From Candidatus Micrarchaeota archaeon (GTDB lineage Archaea > Micrarchaeota > Micrarchaeia > Norongarragalinales > SBBD01): DNA of 26,388 nt. A model generated the notes under the pieces. That model was not told the DNA's origin and did no database searches. It saw only the letters and a list, made by a program, of their open reading frames with translations. Positions 7,194 through 19,911 of the stretch are shown here, piece after piece (position 1 is the first letter of the stretch; every line of letters begins with the position of its first letter). Location: assembly GCA_038046605.1 (NCBI GenBank), contig JBBSVW010000086.1:1-26388 (forward strand), written 5' to 3'. Both the position numbers and the translations under genes were made by a program.

Positions 7194-8651
7194 GTGGTAA
7201 AATTGGAATATTCCTTTAGGGAACTAATGGAGAAAGCAAGGGAAAAAACCAATTGGAATTATTTGGGCAAATGGGTCCAGCCACCGCTTTTCACCTCGTA
7301 TTGGCGAAATTTTGGCGAAAGGGATGGCTATTTGGCACTTGGCCTTCCGGAAATTTCCGGCAGCCTGCTTTACCTTGACGGGCATCACCTAATGCTTTCG
7401 CGGGAGGTTTTGTTGCTTGAGGAAGGCGCAACAAAGGCGCTTATTGAAGAGGATAGGGGATTTTTCCAGAAAATTTTCAGGGAATCGGATAGGATAACAA
7501 AAAATTACCTCAAATTCACGCAGGGGATGAAATTTGATGGATCAAGCGCGGGGGATGTTTTTAGGGAATTTTCAAGCAAAACCGATGAAATGTTTTGCCC
7601 ATGGATGGCTGCATTCCTTTTGGGCCCATTTGTCACAAGATTCCTTGATTTGGAACTTGAGAAGGAAAACCTCATCCAAATGGACCTGCTTTCCCACTTC
7701 AACCTGCCCAGGCCCACATTCCTAATTCAACAGGAACGGGAGGTGCGCGCATTCAAAAAGCAGTTTGAGGCTCTTGAAATTTCCCATATGCTTGAGGAGC
7801 CCCCAAAACGCGCCATAACAATGCTCATGAACACCCATCCGCAGCTTGCCAGAGGCCTCAAATTCCACATGGCGGAATACGAATGGGTGGGAACGCACCA
7901 TTGCTGGGGGGATCCGTTAACCCCCGAAAGGCTGTTTTTTCAGATTAGGGAGGCAATAAATGCCCCAAGAGCCCAGAGCAGGGAAATAGCCATTTCAGGC
8001 AGGCTCGAATACCTCATTTCCTTGGTGAAGGAATTTGCGTATTGGAGGCAATTTTGCGCGGAATGCTCCGCAATTGGCCTATTCAGGGCAAGGGGGCTTC
8101 TAAAAGAGGCAGCAAGCCATTTGGGCATTGGCTATGATGATATTATTTGGCTGACAAAAGGTGAAATATCCAAGGCGCTTGAAAAAAATTCACGCCAGCC
8201 ATTGGCAAAAGTAAGGGGCCGGCGAAAAATTTACGGTTATTTTCCGGATGGGGAAGGGGAGGAGGTAATCGGGGGGGGAAAGGTAACCCAGCTCATAGCA
8301 CGGCTTGTGCCAAAATTCGATTTCGAGCAAAAGCAGCTTTATGGAACTGTTGGAAGCATGGGCGAGGCAAAGGGCAGGGTATTTGTCGCCTTCACCCCGC
8401 TTGAGGCAATCCCAATGAGAAAAGGGGACATTTTGGTTGTCCCCCAAACAACACCCGATTATGTGATGGTCATGAAGAAGGCGGCGGCAATTGTCACCGA
8501 TGAGGGGGGGATCACATGCCACGCCGCAATTGTCAGCAGGGAACTAGGCATCCCCTGCATCGTTGGGACAAAAATAGGGACCAGCATGCTAAAAACGGGC
8601 GATAGGGTTGAAGTGGACGCCAATCGGGGTATTATTCGCAAATTAGATTGA
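7194..8651 (+). CDS. Protein with a C-terminal PEP-utilising enzyme mobile (phospho-His) domain
   Basis: GDILV..TTPDY..AAIVTDEGGITCHAAIVSRELGIPCIVG. The N-terminal ~370 aa are unassigned; no PEP synthase ATP-grasp domain recognised. Confidence 0.85.
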   Translation: MVKLEYSFRELMEKAREKTNWNYLGKWVQPPLFTSYWRNFGERDGYLALGLPEISGSLLYLDGHHLMLSREVLLLEEGATKALIEEDRGFFQKIFRESDRITKNYLKFTQGMKFDGSSAGDVFREFSSKTDEMFCPWMAAFLLGPFVTRFLDLELEKENLIQMDLLSHFNLPRPTFLIQQEREVRAFKKQFEALEISHMLEEPPKRAITMLMNTHPQLARGLKFHMAEYEWVGTHHCWGDPLTPERLFFQIREAINAPRAQSREIAISGRLEYLISLVKEFAYWRQFCAECSAIGLFRARGLLKEAASHLGIGYDDIIWLTKGEISKALEKNSRQPLAKVRGRRKIYGYFPDGEGEEVIGGGKVTQLIARLVPKFDFEQKQLYGTVGSMGEAKGRVFVAFTPLEAIPMRKGDILVVPQTTPDYVMVMKKAAAIVTDEGGITCHAAIVSRELGIPCIVGTKIGTSMLKTGDRVEVDANRGIIRKLD

Positions 8652-8665
8652 TTCGCAAATCAAAT

Positions 8666-8822
8666 TAAGGGGGTAGTGGGCAAGCGTCTTGGGGGAAGTA
8701 TCCCCCGCTACCCTTGGAAGCATCCCCCTCCTAATTCGTAAATGAAATTAGGAAGGGTAAGGCAACCCGATAGGGAAACGTAGTTGCCCTTGGGGTTGGG
8801 GGATTATCCCCCTAGCGGTGTC
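8666..8822. other. Multi-hairpin intergenic element 1, ending CCCCCTAGCGGTGTC
   Basis: Stems GGGTAGTGGG/CCCGCTACCC, CAAG/CTTG, GGGGA/TCCCC, TCCTAATT/AATTAGGA, GGCAAC/GTTGCC and GGGGGA/TCCCCC. Confidence 0.75.
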
Positions 8823-8864
8823 GTGGAAGTCGACGCCAATCGGGGTATTATACGGAAGTTGTGA
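8823..8864 (+). repeat. Recoded duplicate of the 3' end of the PEP-domain gene (VEVDANRGIIRKL*)
   Basis: Aligns with 8607..8645: 13/13 identical amino acids, six nucleotide differences, all at third codon positions. Confidence 0.9.
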
Positions 8865-15648: not shown

Positions 15649-16200
15649 TTAATGGGCGCGGGCATTGCGCTCCCGTTCAATATCCCGCAATAACCTATCG
15701 GAACTCCCAGGATGGATATTGTCAAGAAGGGCCGTAATCTCCCGATTGCTCCTCCTATCGATTGGATTTTCCTTATCCAGGCCCATTAGCGCCCTTCTGG
15801 CAAAATTCTGGACCCTAATTTCGCGCTCGACGCGGAAATTCAACGAATCCTCAAGCATTACCCGCCCTGCCCTTCCTATTATCCCCTCCAATTTCTTACG
15901 TATTGTTTCAATTTCAGCATTGGGGCCCCTTTGCGCATCAAATCTAAATCTTTGGGCATGCGCGTATTGGATATGCGCCAAATCGCGCGCGAGATAACTT
16001 TTCAGCAAATCCAATTTGTACCCGATAACTGCAGTGCGCGCTTTTTCCAACTTTTTCAGGGTATCTTTAGAGGACGTTTTTATTATGGAAGCCGGAAGGA
16101 ACTCCAAATCCAGCCTTAAATACCGCTCAACATGCCTCTTGCGCAAGCCCGGAAGAAATGCAAAAACATCGGTTAGCCTGTTTGGCATGCGCATTATCAC
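15649..16200 (-). CDS. Hypothetical basic helical protein
   Basis: 183 aa ORF filling an intergenic gap; AGGTG near the start; exact start uncertain. Confidence 0.6.
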   Translation of the reverse strand: MIMRMPNRLTDVFAFLPGLRKRHVERYLRLDLEFLPASIIKTSSKDTLKKLEKARTAVIGYKLDLLKSYLARDLAHIQYAHAQRFRFDAQRGPNAEIETIRKKLEGIIGRAGRVMLEDSLNFRVEREIRVQNFARRALMGLDKENPIDRRSNREITALLDNIHPGSSDRLLRDIERERNARAH

Positions 16201-16318
16201 CTAAAAAAGCAAGTGCTTATGCTTAAGCATGCTTAATAATAATTATGTAAAATTAGAAATGGGGCGTTTAACCGCTGCCTGCCTGGAATTTCCCTGCGAG
16301 GCTTTCAACGCCTATTGC

Positions 16319-16840
16319 CTATCGCTTCCTTCCCTTAGACTTGCCCGCCTTGGCTTCTTTTGCCTCCTTTCCTTTGGGCTTCCTTCCAAGCTTGCTTGAA
16401 AATCCCGTCCGGATTCCGCTTGAGGCGATTTTCCTTTGTGAATTTGAGCGCATTGGCCTAAGTTTCACCGGCCCAACCTCATCAGAATCGCCCCTCTCCC
16501 GTTTTCCATTGGAAATAAGCGAAAAATTCATCTTTTCCATCTGCGCAAACTTTTTGCGGTCCTCGATGTCTGTTTTCAACTGCTTTATCCTTGCGCGCTT
16601 TATTGCAATTGCCTCCTCAACATCCTCAACGCCTAAAGAGTAGACTAGGTAATTTGAAAAGCGGATGGGATTAACACCAACTTGAGTCTTGACGTGCTTG
16701 AGATCCTCAGGAGAGGCGGTTTTTAGGACAACGGTTGAATTGCACTCCTCACAAGGCTTGTATTTCATGGAAGCTTCCCAAACCTGCTTTGCGTTGCAGC
16801 CGCCGCAATTGACAATGAATAACTTGACAGTCTCGTTCAT
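16319..16840 (-). CDS. Hypothetical protein with N-terminal zinc ribbon and Lys/Arg-rich tail
   Basis: CGGC...CEEC, central coiled segment and basic C-terminus; GAGGTG RBS. Confidence 0.75.
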   Translation of the reverse strand: MNETVKLFIVNCGGCNAKQVWEASMKYKPCEECNSTVVLKTASPEDLKHVKTQVGVNPIRFSNYLVYSLGVEDVEEAIAIKRARIKQLKTDIEDRKKFAQMEKMNFSLISNGKRERGDSDEVGPVKLRPMRSNSQRKIASSGIRTGFSSKLGRKPKGKEAKEAKAGKSKGRKR

Positions 16841-17173
16841 GATCCCACCTCAAGCATACCCCACAATAGTGTTATAGAACCCCCATGTCACCACTGTGCA
16901 GCAGTATATTATGGTATAACCAATATAAATACCTTGCTAAAATTTGCCCCAATAAGGGCATAAAATGCATTAATACGAAAAGGACAAATTGGGAAAAAAG
17001 GTGAATTAGCCCGGAAAAATGTTGCCCGGCGATTTAATCCGTTTTTTCACGATAAATAGTTACGCTTTACCCCTAAATATCCTAGGGGTTTAACTTAAAG
17101 CTCGCATTTAAAAGATTTAAGGGCTTGAACTTTGGAAGAGTGGCAAAATTAGTTTGATGAGGCGATTAATTGC

Positions 17174-17785
17174 ATGAAAGCGTACCTGCTAATGGTTTTT
17201 GCTGCGTTCCTGCTTTTTGGATGCACAAGCAATAATCCTTCCCCTTCAGCCTTGCCATCAACCCAATTGGTAGATACGCTTCCTCCCATTTCAACGATTA
17301 CTACAAATCCTGGTGATAAAATGGCGGTAGCAAAAGGGGATACGGTTTTCGTTTGGTATTTGGGAATTTTGGATGATGGCACAACCTTTGACACAAACAT
17401 TGTGGCAGAAGCAAAGAAAGCAGGTACTTTTGATGCGGGAAGGCCCTATGAGACCCTTGATTTCCAGGTGGGCGCTGGCCAGATGATAAAAGGATTTGAT
17501 GCGGGAGTTGTAGGCATGAAGGAAGGGGAGACCAAAACCGTCAAGATGGCAGCCAAGGACGCATATGGGGAACTAAGGGCGGATCTAATCCAAGTAGTTC
17601 CACTAGCTGATTTAAAGAAAGCTGGAATTAATGCCTCAGAAGGGCAGATCATTGGCACGAGCACTGGCGCAAGGGGGGTAATCCGGAAAGTTGATTCGCA
17701 GAACGCAACAATTGATTTCAACCACTTCCTTGCCGGGCAGGCCTTGACGTTCAAGATTACTGTTGAAAAAATAACTAAAGCCTAG
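17174..17785 (+). CDS. FKBP-type peptidyl-prolyl isomerase (SlyD-like, IF domain) with lipoprotein-like leader
   Basis: GDTV..Y.G.LDDGTTFDT, VGAGQMIKGFD, DAYG and IDFNHFLAGQALTF motifs; LLFGC leader. Confidence 0.92.
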   Translation: MKAYLLMVFAAFLLFGCTSNNPSPSALPSTQLVDTLPPISTITTNPGDKMAVAKGDTVFVWYLGILDDGTTFDTNIVAEAKKAGTFDAGRPYETLDFQVGAGQMIKGFDAGVVGMKEGETKTVKMAAKDAYGELRADLIQVVPLADLKKAGINASEGQIIGTSTGARGVIRKVDSQNATIDFNHFLAGQALTFKITVEKITKA

Positions 17786-17885
17786 GGGGGGATAGAAGCG
17801 ACATACCAAAGACGGAGTCTTTGTATGTTAGTAGACCTTAAAGGTCTACGTAACACGAGTAAGGGGGTCTCCCCCTTAGTGTGTC
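17786..17885. other. Multi-hairpin intergenic element 2, ending CCCCCTTAGTGTGTC
   Basis: Hairpins ACATAC-C-AAAGAC/GTCTTT-GTATGT (17801-17828), GTAGACCT/AGGTCTAC (17831-17849) and TAAGGGGG/CCCCCTTA (17860-17878). Confidence 0.75.
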
Positions 17886-17960
17886 AACCACTTCTTGGCG
17901 GGGCAGCAATTGACCTTCAAAATTACGGTTGAGAAGATCACTAAAGCTTTGGGGTGTTGA
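17886..17960 (+). repeat. Recoded duplicate of the 3' end of the FKBP gene (NHFLAGQQLTFKITVEKITKALGC*)
   Basis: 17886..17948 aligns with 17720..17782: 20/21 identical amino acids, 50/63 identical nucleotides, nine synonymous codon changes and one A-to-Q change. Confidence 0.92.
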
Positions 17961-18018
17961 AAGCAAGCGTGAAACAAAGTTCGCCCTTTGGCCAGACAAA
18001 ATGTTTGCAAAGTCGACT

Positions 18019-18111
18019 TATAGCGAATAAGGCAATTATTGAAACTTTTCCCTGCCTTATTCTCATATAGCGGTTTTTTTGAGTGATCCGTTATTTTACT
18101 TAACTGCTATA
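18019..18111 (+). repeat. TATA-bounded double-palindrome element, copy 2
   Basis: First 59 nt identical to 19799..19857; TATA at 18019, 18066 and 18108. Confidence 0.92.
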
Positions 18112-18223
18112 GAACTTCTGGCGATACCATCATGACCGCCATCCAATGCGCGCAGATATGGTTAAATACTTCTTCTTAATTACAATGTAGACGGGTCATT
18201 ACCAGCGTACGGGGTTGCTTTCG

Positions 18224-19213
18224 ATGGGGGGGCTTTTAGATAAATTACAAAATTTAGTACCAAAAAGCATTGGTTCCGCCATCACCAAGGCTAGTTTAAA
18301 TTCAAAAATATCGGAAATTCAGGCAGAAACAACAAAATTGCAGGAGTTTATCGATAAATTAGAGGCAGATAAGAAGAAAATACTATTGAAAGCAAATGAA
18401 AAACTATGCTTTCATGGTTTTTCGGATTTCTTACAAGAAAGAATGATAAGGGAATATTCGTCTGGTTTTGCAGGCTTCAGAGTGGCAAGAGGCGTATATT
18501 TAGGAGGCTCAAGCGGCTCTTCTGAATCCTTTCCAACACTTAAAAAAATAGACAGAGGCACCTTAACGGTAACCAGTAAGCGCATTATCTTTAATGGTAC
18601 ATACAAAAATATTGAAATTAAATTAGATAAAATCAATACTCTTGAACCATTTTCTAATGCAATTGAAATCGGCCAAGAAAATAAGCAAAAGACAATGGTA
18701 TTTACCACCGAATATCCTTTTTCAATTTTATATGCTGTTCAAGCTTCTTTAAATCCTAACGATATCTCAGAGGAAGCATCCTTAGCAATTAAGAGAGAAA
18801 TAAACAGCAAAATCGCTCTTGACTTAAAAAAAATGGAATTAAAGTCGCTTGTTCTTGACGAAGACAATATCAGAATATACGCGACATATTTCAGTTTACT
18901 TTTTAGGAAGCTAAATTCGATTATGTCAATTTACAGAGCTTTACCATCTTCAAAAACCGTATCTGGAATTGACAAGTTAGTTCAATCTATAGGTAATTTC
19001 GCTTCTGTACTTGAGGATATTAGTAATGCAACCGACGTTATTAGAAAACGAGAACCTCAAGGACTTAATGGAGACCAAAAATCTAAATATTACGAAAAAG
19101 GATGGGAAGAAATCGGAGTTAAGGAAAAATTAGTTAATGCTATTCGGATTTATGTAAGTGCTGCTGAAGAAAGCGGAATAGCAAAAATAACCTACGCCCC
19201 TAAACCATCATAA
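18224..19213 (+). CDS. Hypothetical protein with coiled coil and possible PH-like domain (AT-rich, probably foreign)
   Basis: Long ORF; IDRGTLTVTSKRIIFNG..IEIKLDKI resembles bacterial PH-like domains; visibly more AT-rich than neighbouring genes. Confidence 0.7.
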   Translation: MGGLLDKLQNLVPKSIGSAITKASLNSKISEIQAETTKLQEFIDKLEADKKKILLKANEKLCFHGFSDFLQERMIREYSSGFAGFRVARGVYLGGSSGSSESFPTLKKIDRGTLTVTSKRIIFNGTYKNIEIKLDKINTLEPFSNAIEIGQENKQKTMVFTTEYPFSILYAVQASLNPNDISEEASLAIKREINSKIALDLKKMELKSLVLDEDNIRIYATYFSLLFRKLNSIMSIYRALPSSKTVSGIDKLVQSIGNFASVLEDISNATDVIRKREPQGLNGDQKSKYYEKGWEEIGVKEKLVNAIRIYVSAAEESGIAKITYAPKPS

Positions 19214-19547
19214 CTTTTAATTGAAGATTATTAGGTAACACTGAGCAAATATTTGGAGTAAAGGTATAAGAAATGCCTTCAACCATTCCACTTAGGCCTA
19301 ATTGAGCACCAGAACAATTTACTTGAACTTCGGAGCTGATTCCCAAGGGTTTTCTTTCTCCATTTTCAAAATATTCTGGAGTTGCACAAAATCGCCCTCC
19401 ACTTTCAAAACAATGAAGGTAACTGCCAGTTTTATTTGCTGAAATAGGCTTAACCAGTATATCATGTTTAGTCGGGCGACCAATGATTACTACCGGTCCT
19501 TCTTTTCTAAGGAATTGATATTCTTTAATATCGCTTTTACTTGCCAT
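19200..19547 (-). CDS. Hypothetical protein (AT-rich)
   Basis: 115 aa ATG-start ORF convergent with, and overlapping by 14 nt, the preceding gene. Confidence 0.5.
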   Translation of the reverse strand: MASKSDIKEYQFLRKEGPVVIIGRPTKHDILVKPISANKTGSYLHCFESGGRFCATPEYFENGERKPLGISSEVQVNCSGAQLGLSGMVEGISYTFTPNICSVLPNNLQLKVMMV

Positions 19548-19798
19548 AAGAGCTAACCAACAATTTACTTAGACGATATTTTATTTTAGGCGAATTAGTA
19601 TTAAATGCTTCAGGTAGGTCTGTCGAATCGACTTGCATCTGATGTTCACTCAGTCTGTATCAGACTTCGTCAGATCAACACTTTTTTCGGTCAATGAACA
19701 CTAGCATAAAAATGCCTATTTAAAGCTATCTCCAGACCCCTCGTATTTCCGCTTATCTGCCTAGGAAATTGGGTAGATTAGGCAAGAAACGTGGAAAC

Positions 19799-19891
19799 TA
19801 TAGCGAATAAGGCAATTATTGAAACTTTTCCCTGCCTTATTCTCATATAGCGGTTTTATTTGAATGGTCCTTTATTTTACTAACAGCTATA
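19799..19891 (+). repeat. TATA-bounded double-palindrome element, copy 3
   Basis: Direct repeat of 18019..18111; both copies are 93 bp. Confidence 0.92.
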
Positions 19892-19911
19892 AAACCCATA
19901 TAATTTGTTGC

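Follow-up and report, generated by a model that had tools for sequence, protein, structure and literature searches.

A gene-less hairpin repeat family between working and spare gene ends in a Micrarchaeota archaeon

Introduction

How does a gene come to end twice, once in use and once behind a short non-coding insert, with nearly the same peptide written in different codons? The question is raised by a contig of Candidatus Micrarchaeota archaeon (GenBank assembly GCA_038046605.1, contig JBBSVW010000086.1), of which the whole analysed stretch, positions 1 to 26,388 of the forward strand, is called the window here. In it, a gene for an FKBP-type peptidyl-prolyl isomerase is followed by a hairpin-forming spacer, a member of the element family named E, and then by a recoded copy of the gene's own 3′-end. 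The gene-end copy 1 is designated t1 and the gene-end copy 2 is designated t2. The answer we favour, with a probability of about 0.55, is that E came to lie at the gene end together with a long target duplication, and that t1 and t2 have separate histories.

The source assembly (G000; 1.64 Mb, 106 contigs, 90.7% complete) contains the window as contig C86. Related genomes carry similar labels (G002–G006 and G011 are used below), G005 being the closest congener, and the family f1 consists of G000 and 10 other genomes.

The FKBP Gene End Is Duplicated and Recoded around a Hairpin Spacer

In a repeat search, t1 and t2 were found as a two-copy direct repeat of 71 nt with 80% identity and a 166-nt spacing, which places t2 in frame +1 relative to the FKBP gene. 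The two copies translate to NHFLAGQALTFKITVEKITKA (t1) and NHFLAGQQLTFKITVEKITKALGC (t2), each followed by a stop, with the C-terminal peptides ...ITVEKITKA and ...ITVEKITKALGC, respectively. Over 21 codons, nine synonymous changes and one replacement (GCC>CAA) separate them, and the nucleotide differences at codon positions 1, 2, and 3 amount to 2, 1, and 10. Both copies begin with an 11-nt identity (TCAACCACTTC), and their similarity extends past the stop, with GCC TAG GGG in t1 and GCT TTG GGG in t2. The open frame of t2 (17880–17960) begins after TAG 17877–17879 and closes at TGA 17958–17960. The pair scores 71 in local alignment, compared with a median of 15.5 and a 95th percentile of 20.5 for 300 mismatched E-flank pairs that served as control for flank repeats.

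An earlier, sequence-only reading of this locus had described the duplicated and recoded FKBP end behind a three-hairpin spacer, and the direct repeat, the codon counts, and the spacer fold bear it out, as they do its nine synonymous changes with one replacement, its 11-nt identity, and the similarity running through the stop. It had also predicted that a precise deletion between the copies swaps the C-terminus of the protein, and the product would indeed end ...QQ..KALGC in place of ...QA..KA. The TAG that closes t1 may itself belong to E, whose alpha copies start TTAG-GGGGG; if so, the original FKBP protein would have ended ...KALGC.

The protein matches the Pfam families FKBP_C (1.8e-15) and FKBP26_IF (6.6e-06; 26.4 bits, slightly below the 27-bit cut-off), and query residues 52–199, repeated tail included, can be aligned from end to end with 1ix5_A, an archaeal FKBP of solved structure (E-value 3.1e-29). 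The tail therefore belongs to the fold and is strongly constrained.

Logan contigs from two groundwater samples of one study span the t1-E-t2 layout with 0 differences (X2 record 9, 16000–18048; X1 record 2, 17283–17923; X1 may be the source sample). The repeat is thus real, and an assembly chimera, one of two objections that the sequence-only reading had raised against itself, is excluded. The other, two full tandem FKBP genes in relatives, was found in none of the 19 relatives, among which only the closest congener carries a tail-spacer-tail arrangement. A spacer-less or recombined joint was seen in none of the contigs from three runs, which have a depth of 5–7 and in which rare variants are dropped. 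The best match to the FKBP in a scan of metagenome contigs was 58% identical, so that close relatives are missing there, and the best non-self match in the protein database was 69% identical, so that it holds no same-species allele without E.

The Spacer Belongs to a Family-Restricted Repeat Family

The insert at FKBP comprises 100 nt without an ORF (open reading frame) or a mobility gene. Its minimum free energy is −43.2 kcal/mol (z −3.66), none of 200 shuffled sequences folding equally well, and it is 80% identical over 103 aligned columns to another copy in the same genome (G000:C28:123–224). Copies of E begin with a 5′ module of the form ATTCGCARARnTAAATAA, which has stop codons in two frames and holds a TAA or TAG immediately ahead of a G run, so that E supplies a stop; after the G run follow TAGAGGC and an imperfect hairpin, GACAC-GAG-TAGGGGG...CCCCCTA-nAG-GTGTC. 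The FKBP copy represents a longer form in which two additional hairpins are placed between GGCGAC and ACACG. The structure is conserved: 13 of the 30 consensus pairs in the three-hairpin alignment vary on both sides yet stay paired, and five of six mini copies with the basal-helix A-variant GGCAACAC carry the matching GTGTT end.

Two covariance models were used, R1, built from 20 mini copies, and R2, built for the three-hairpin form with the FKBP copy included. Model R1 gave 94 matches in G000 and 5–82 in each of the 10 other f1 genomes, and outside f1 one weak match each in 4 of 30 genomes. Model R2 found 22 copies in G000 and 17 in G005, and of the 11 family genomes searched, G000 among them, 8 had a match. 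E is therefore a small, gene-less, non-coding hairpin repeat family confined to one Micrarchaeota family. Rfam returned a 9-bit chance match alone in 17600–18150 and nothing at four other E loci.

At one site, an orthologous E is present in two species (G000:C56 near 240 and G005:C13 near 6553). Its outer part is identical at 49 of 50 positions and the flank at 104 of 130, whereas the inner two-hairpin module, with differences at about half of the 44 bases, has been swapped for another. The outer part has thus been kept far beyond neutral DNA, which argues that the element is not junk and that it may have some function. An E2-type element directly upstream of this orthologous E is near-identical as well.

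Two other accounts of the 5′ module were considered and dropped. The string ATTCGCAAA... had looked like a tail remnant travelling with E, and it proved to be the element's own 5′ module, present before most full copies. A mobile promoter in the module (GTAAATAA) was given up, as it matches the genome's upstream motif, TTTAAA/TTTATA near −30, only weakly.

Tail-Element-Tail Layouts Recur at Gene and tRNA Ends

When a second copy of the last 25 residues was sought within 450 nt downstream of 3564 ORFs, 20 matches were obtained. Sixteen were inspected, and an E-type hairpin element lay in the gap at 15 of them, two of these (C29 and C42) holding a related second family; in most of the gaps the element extends up to the spare tail. 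In an element-first search, direct repeats scoring above the control's 95th percentile adjoined 16 of the 59 mini copies and 11 of the 45 three-hairpin copies, the latter drawn from nine genomes. The repeats are 14–89 nt long, and the downstream copy begins 0–6 nt past GTGTC. The sequence-only reading was partly supported overall; it had missed both the dispersed element family and this genome-wide footprint.

The window itself holds a second locus of this kind, with two or three E copies (8648–8716, 8731–8822) ahead of a spare tail at 8823–8864 that reads VEVDANRGIIRKL and a stop. The tail recurs 171 nt downstream of its counterpart in the gene, and the five differences in the 12 codons compared are all synonymous. 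The most elaborate case is a conserved gene of 778 aa (G000:C73:31336–31863), at whose end five tail copies alternate with four E copies from different subfamilies; the tails follow the pattern DY[RK].WVD.YLAKPLLKK, all five being open and each closed by a stop. The C73 orthologue in G003 has one E and one spare tail that starts at the same codon, and neither E nor a spare tail was found at the orthologues in G002, G004, G005, and G006. The spare tails at C73 retain the K of the five other species at a position where R stands in the working copy.

Among 19 other FKBP loci, all in other species, the second tail is absent at 18, and the sole exception is G005. Its FKBP gene (70% protein identity) is likewise followed by a three-hairpin E of about 100 nt and a second tail, with a spacing of 168 nt, so that t2 lies in frame with the gene, two stops standing between the copies; t1 closes at the TAA of E, one codon short of the end of t2. 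This E is 50% identical over aligned columns to the E at the G000 FKBP gene and 75% identical to the copy G000:C79. Since an orthologous E can stay nearly unchanged, the differing FKBP elements of G000 and G005 look like separate arrivals, or alternatively an ancestral copy may have been replaced. The FKBP end would then be a preferred landing site of E. The suggestion that the locus is an integration hotspot stands insofar as the same gene end holds another E subfamily in the sister species, and falls insofar as the borders of the neighbouring AT-rich cassette are not att sites. A second, weak FKBP match in G011 was an in-frame internal repeat of the insert domain and no tail copy.

The 3′-ends of tRNA genes are duplicated beside E in the same manner. 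Further, tRNA-Gly(GCC) of G000:C31:7649–7806(−) has in its T-loop an 81-nt canonical bulge-helix-bulge intron that contains a mini-E, the element forming the inner helix of the intron (CCGGG-TTCA-AAT-GACACA...TGTGTC-TGAA-AAT-CCCGG). The drawing of this tRNA by ARAGORN itself was implausible and was replaced by the intron reading, which was checked with a motif scan. Only 13 tRNAs were found by ARAGORN in G000, which fits heavy interruption of tRNA genes. A full three-hairpin E adjoins the 3′-end of the same tRNA-Gly.

Two regularities concern the position of the repeats. The first base past E is a purine in 24 of the 24 copies listed, and of 11 ORF-end E loci in G000 and relatives, 8 have a repeat whose first base is also the first of a codon; two of these 8 share one t1, and one offset case is a tRNA-like false ORF. 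The codon-start bias may follow from the purine preference, or it may hint that reading frame plays a part, and it was not used as evidence.

Spare Tails Differ Mainly at Synonymous Sites

At the G005 FKBP locus, 2 of the 10 codons changed between t1 and t2 are non-synonymous, and in neither species do the two tails differ by an indel over their 66–71 nt. A nucleotide-ascertained, E-anchored set was also compiled; from 16 pairs, six gapped ones and five without an ORF end were left out, which gave five ORF-end loci. Differences at codon positions 1, 2, and 3 of this set numbered 5, 2, and 26, and 24 synonymous stood against 4 non-synonymous codons (4/28). The third-position excess is significant against a generous share of 0.45 (binomial p 8e-5).

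The four FKBP tails of G000 and G005 are practically equidistant. In codons for the same residue, third-position identity was 11/19 and 11/18 within the genomes and 8–12/18 between them, and these values lie inside the range of 0.3–0.7 found between species in a conserved gene. The loci are heterogeneous, as C29, C88, C103, and C18 show many replacements in t2, while the pairs at C55, C76, C42, and C79 are identical or nearly so.

By eye, the third and fourth C73 tails are identical over the first 17 nt and diverge at 10 of the 34 positions that follow, and the differences in the G003 tail pair are confined to its first 33 nt. Such mosaics would fit tract-like exchange, in tracts too short for proof.

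Origin of the Spare Tails

Under the favoured explanation, E would enter with a long target duplication (at FKBP about 66–71 nt) that spans the gene end. The gene would stay complete through t1, its stop lying at or within the 5′ border of E, and t2, presumably the original end, would remain behind E with the original downstream DNA, untranslated in the 3′ region. One of the two tails would have reached the chromosome by recombination with a diverged lineage, either as the gene's 3′ part was overwritten up to E, the best-conserved anchor nearby, or as E arrived together with a foreign tail. For this component, in which t1 and t2 both evolved as working ends and met through recombination, we put the odds, within those of the full statement, at about even.

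Several observations weigh against this explanation. Synonymous divergence across the loci forms a continuum from identical to saturated, which long joint evolution under constraint would fit equally well as import. The hunt for a donor gave nothing: the FKBP tails of seven species differ by 10–23 per 60 nt, none near t1 or t2, and the C73 gene tails of six species, with the fifth, shortened tail ignored, included no near-identical donor. The gene upstream and the gene downstream of the C73 array both group with one and the same sister species, which gives no sign of a recombination breakpoint, and scanning FKBP in windows revealed no clear mosaic. Lineages so far diverged are also expected to recombine rarely. 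With respect to the insertion step, 43 of the 59 mini and 34 of the 45 three-hairpin copies have no flanking repeat, so that the duplication is either non-obligatory or mostly erased, and both duplication at insertion and the choice of the original copy rest on species-level orthologues. That independent events share their repeat boundaries might also reflect a gene-specific cassette bringing along a tail of its own, in place of a target duplication. Finally, no enzyme was linked to E, a Y1 transposase being present in 4 of 10 family genomes and a tyrosine recombinase giving 0 matches in G000.

The best surviving alternative is that purifying selection maintains a spare tail that is in use, whether by removal of E and one tail from part of the transcripts, by frequent E-less revertants, or by some other expression; we consider this unlikely. 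It would explain why t2 is intact and differs from t1 almost only synonymously in both species despite saturated synonymous sites, why all five C73 tails are open and end in a stop, and why the pooled synonymous excess survives nucleotide ascertainment. The spread of divergence from identical to saturated is that expected for ageing under constraint, and E is itself conserved far beyond neutral DNA at the orthologous site. Also in its favour, a mini-E builds the inner helix of the tRNA-Gly intron, and a splicing endonuclease with broad specificity is described for ultrasmall archaea in the available part of PMC3239211. Against use, t2 lacks a start codon and stands in different frames, +1 in G000 and 0 in G005, which excludes read-through, and in G000 the position of its stop reads TTG. 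A scan for bulge-helix-bulge motifs (two 3-nt bulges, 4-bp helix), which recovers the tRNA-Gly control, found none that removes an in-frame unit: there were 0 strong motifs at the G000 FKBP locus and four in G005, which would remove 52, 50, 175, or 97 nt, where shuffled sequences give about 0.9. Direct repeats are moreover unable to pair with each other, several of the loci named above do show many replacements in t2, and second-order selection through rare deletions would probably be too weak if E persists so long. An extended form, in which E is a new class of gene-less mobile DPANN cassettes whose spare ends are kept readable by use, through splicing removal or regular reversion, appears doubtful to the same degree; if true, one element family would link mRNA interruption to tRNA intron gain.

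That the layout is an attL/attR scar of a larger virus, plasmid, or island, which supplied a replacement end at the FKBP 3′-end and has since been mostly deleted, is highly improbable in our view. Such integration classically leaves recoded duplicates of a gene end behind (e14 and phage 21 at icd), and both the 11-nt identical core at the start of the copies and the AT-rich cassette 58 nt away would suit it. However, an element of about 50–100 nt fills the gap at more than 15 loci in G000 and at the same gene in G005, and random deletion would not leave the same small element each time. PF00589 has 0 matches in G000, a 90.7% complete assembly, and the cassette is situated beyond the two tails, between copies of another dispersed repeat.

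An equally slim chance is left to a plain in-place target-site duplication with a decaying spare copy, the synonymous pattern then being chance and ascertainment. The near-identical pairs at C55, C76, C42, and C79 are of the kind it predicts, the loci were first found via protein similarity, which favours conserved pairs, and the lack of a detectable repeat at most E copies is what decay of the repeats would produce. However, if t1 were constrained while t2 drifted neutrally, about 60% of the differences should be non-synonymous, compared with the observed 1/10, 2/10, and 4/28, and most differences should fall in t2, about three quarters of those changing the residue. The 66–71 nt hold no indel in either species, and a neutral copy at between-species synonymous divergence would be unrecognisable. 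As synonymous sites stand at the between-species level while the peptide is near-identical, in-place duplication with neutral decay is rejected for these tails. A diversity-generating retroelement, whose mismatches would fall at adenines of one copy and be mostly non-synonymous, is excluded by the mismatch spectrum, no search having been aimed at a reverse transcriptase: of the 14 differences, 4 have A in t1 and 3 in t2, and 9 of the 10 changed codons are synonymous.

Comparison with Known Systems

Long target duplication by restriction-modification (RM) units was reportedly treated in earlier work by Nobusato et al. in 2000. According to the available part of PMC2853133 (Furuta, Abe, and Kobayashi 2010), bacterial RM units insert with long, variable target duplications: direct repeats of more than 30 bp flank an insert without transposase or integrase, their length varies, and they can overlap the 3′-end of a gene. 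E resembles them in these respects, the 71-nt repeat at FKBP adjoining both ends of the element. The inserts described in that part of the article are kilobase gene units of bacteria with near-identical repeats, and no archaeal case passed the screen as presented there (PMC2853133). E, unlike RM units, consists of 50–100-nt non-coding hairpins in tens of copies per genome, and many of its repeat pairs are recoded.

The source study on transposing archaeal tRNA introns is said to be that of Fujishima et al. in 2010. In Thermoproteales, near-identical short intron sequences occupy many tRNA positions, and the DNA-level mechanism is given as unexplained in the available part of PMC4090602. The mini-E within the canonical bulge-helix-bulge intron in the tRNA-Gly T-loop is comparable. 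Unlike these introns, E at protein genes sits past the stop and is flanked by long duplications, and no splicing motif occurs at the G000 FKBP locus.

Replacement of gene ends is known from the integrative elements e14 and phage 21 (icd, Escherichia coli), from the CIMEs (cis-mobilizable elements) at fda in Streptococcus, and from atp6 of Allomyces, where a mobile ORF duplicates the C-terminus in fungal mitochondria. There too, the insert stands between a working end and a displaced copy that differs from it at synonymous sites, a divergence that arises because each end evolved as working sequence in a different lineage. These inserts encode or derive from integrase or homing endonuclease elements and target one gene; E, in contrast, is gene-less, lies at many gene and tRNA ends, and comes with no integrase match in G000.

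The bacterial REP/BIME (repetitive extragenic palindrome/bacterial interspersed mosaic element) repeats and the MITEs (miniature inverted-repeat transposable elements), with Correia and RPE among the examples of these kinds, are small, structured, and non-autonomous, occur in tens of copies, and lie mostly behind genes. MITEs have terminal inverted repeats, short fixed duplications, and autonomous relatives, and REPs are associated with RAYT (REP-associated tyrosine transposase) Y1 transposases. The duplications at E, unlike those of MITEs, vary between 14 and 89 nt, and no autonomous form was seen among the inspected copies. The REP/RAYT association is not paralleled either, as the Y1 family PF01797 is found in 4, and E in all, of the 10 other family genomes. 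The single Y1 (IS200-type) transposase of G000 (C9:24252–24698(−)) lies in a GC-rich insertion sequence with unrelated GC-rich hairpins, and this island looks foreign to the 45% GC genome.

In none of these nearest systems do a gene-less hairpin family, recoded spare ends, and long duplications at many gene and tRNA ends occur together, and no published description of the layout was found in a literature search whose scope stopped short of subscription journals. If the favoured explanation is true, these archaea carry tens of copies of a tiny element able to insert at the ends of essential genes and tRNAs and leave them intact. The spare ends would then record either cross-lineage recombination or some use of the copy, and either would open a way to follow gene flow in uncultured DPANN populations. 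A tRNA intron built by E would bear on how introns have spread among archaeal tRNAs, a question of long standing. Annotators should not label such loci frameshifts, pseudogenes, or att sites.

Features of the Window and Neighbourhood of the FKBP Gene

The features of the window are collected in Table 1, in which the MITE-like repeat family R2 is distinct from the covariance model R2 despite the shared label.

Table 1. Positions of the FKBP locus, its neighbours, and the second tail-element-tail locus in the window.
Feature	Position	Strand	Basis
FKBP-type peptidyl-prolyl isomerase gene, lipoprotein-like signal peptide, 203 aa	17174..17785	+	ORF, Pfam
Tail copy t1: last 22 codons, TAG 17783–17785, and GGG; copy in use	17718..17788	+	direct repeat, translation
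E, three-hairpin variant, subfamily alpha	17787..17885	+	covariance model R2, 91.4 bits, E-value 7.9e-18
Hairpins of E at FKBP	about 17800–17829, 17831–17849, 17854–17883	+	fold; terminates in the family's GTGTC
Tail copy t2: spare gene end adjoining the 3′-end of E, in frame +1 and without a start codon	17884..17954	+	direct repeat, translation
Repeat R2, left copy, separate from E	18019..18112	+	BLAST, sharp ends
AT-rich cargo between R2 copies	18113..19798	.	~1.7 kb
Repeat R2, right copy, direct orientation	19799..19893	+	direct repeat, BLAST
Second locus: end of ORF 7194–8651, E copies, spare tail	8648..8864	+	tail scan

The AT-rich stretch has a GC content of 0.33–0.37 vs. about 0.47 and is bounded by 62–83-nt direct repeats (18019–18100, 19799–19881); it begins 58 nt past the TGA at 17958–17960, the distance given before for a repeat-bounded AT-rich cassette. 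Its borders belong to the repeat family R2, which is about 96 nt long, has the ends TATAGCG...CGCTATA with mostly TA-type flanks (by eye), and is represented in G000 by 20 BLAST rows, corresponding to roughly 17 copies. The cargo ORFs 18215–19213(+) and 19200–19547(−) have no match in Pfam or PHROGs, and four neighbouring ORFs have none in PHROGs. A joint in sample X2 (19864>18087, with four extra letters) was considered as a sign of a circle; it falls inside repeat R2 and is best read as another copy.

The region downstream of FKBP has thus taken at least three small-repeat insertions, and the hotspot remark holds in a loose sense. Some R2 copies (2068–2127(−), G000:C68:5685–5835, and G000:C9:5321–5471) hold a nested two-hairpin module, GCGTCAGAAGCC..GGCTTC..TAGCAGGCGC..GCGCCTGCGTAA, that resembles the inner module of long E copies, which suggests that a third small module may insert into other repeats.

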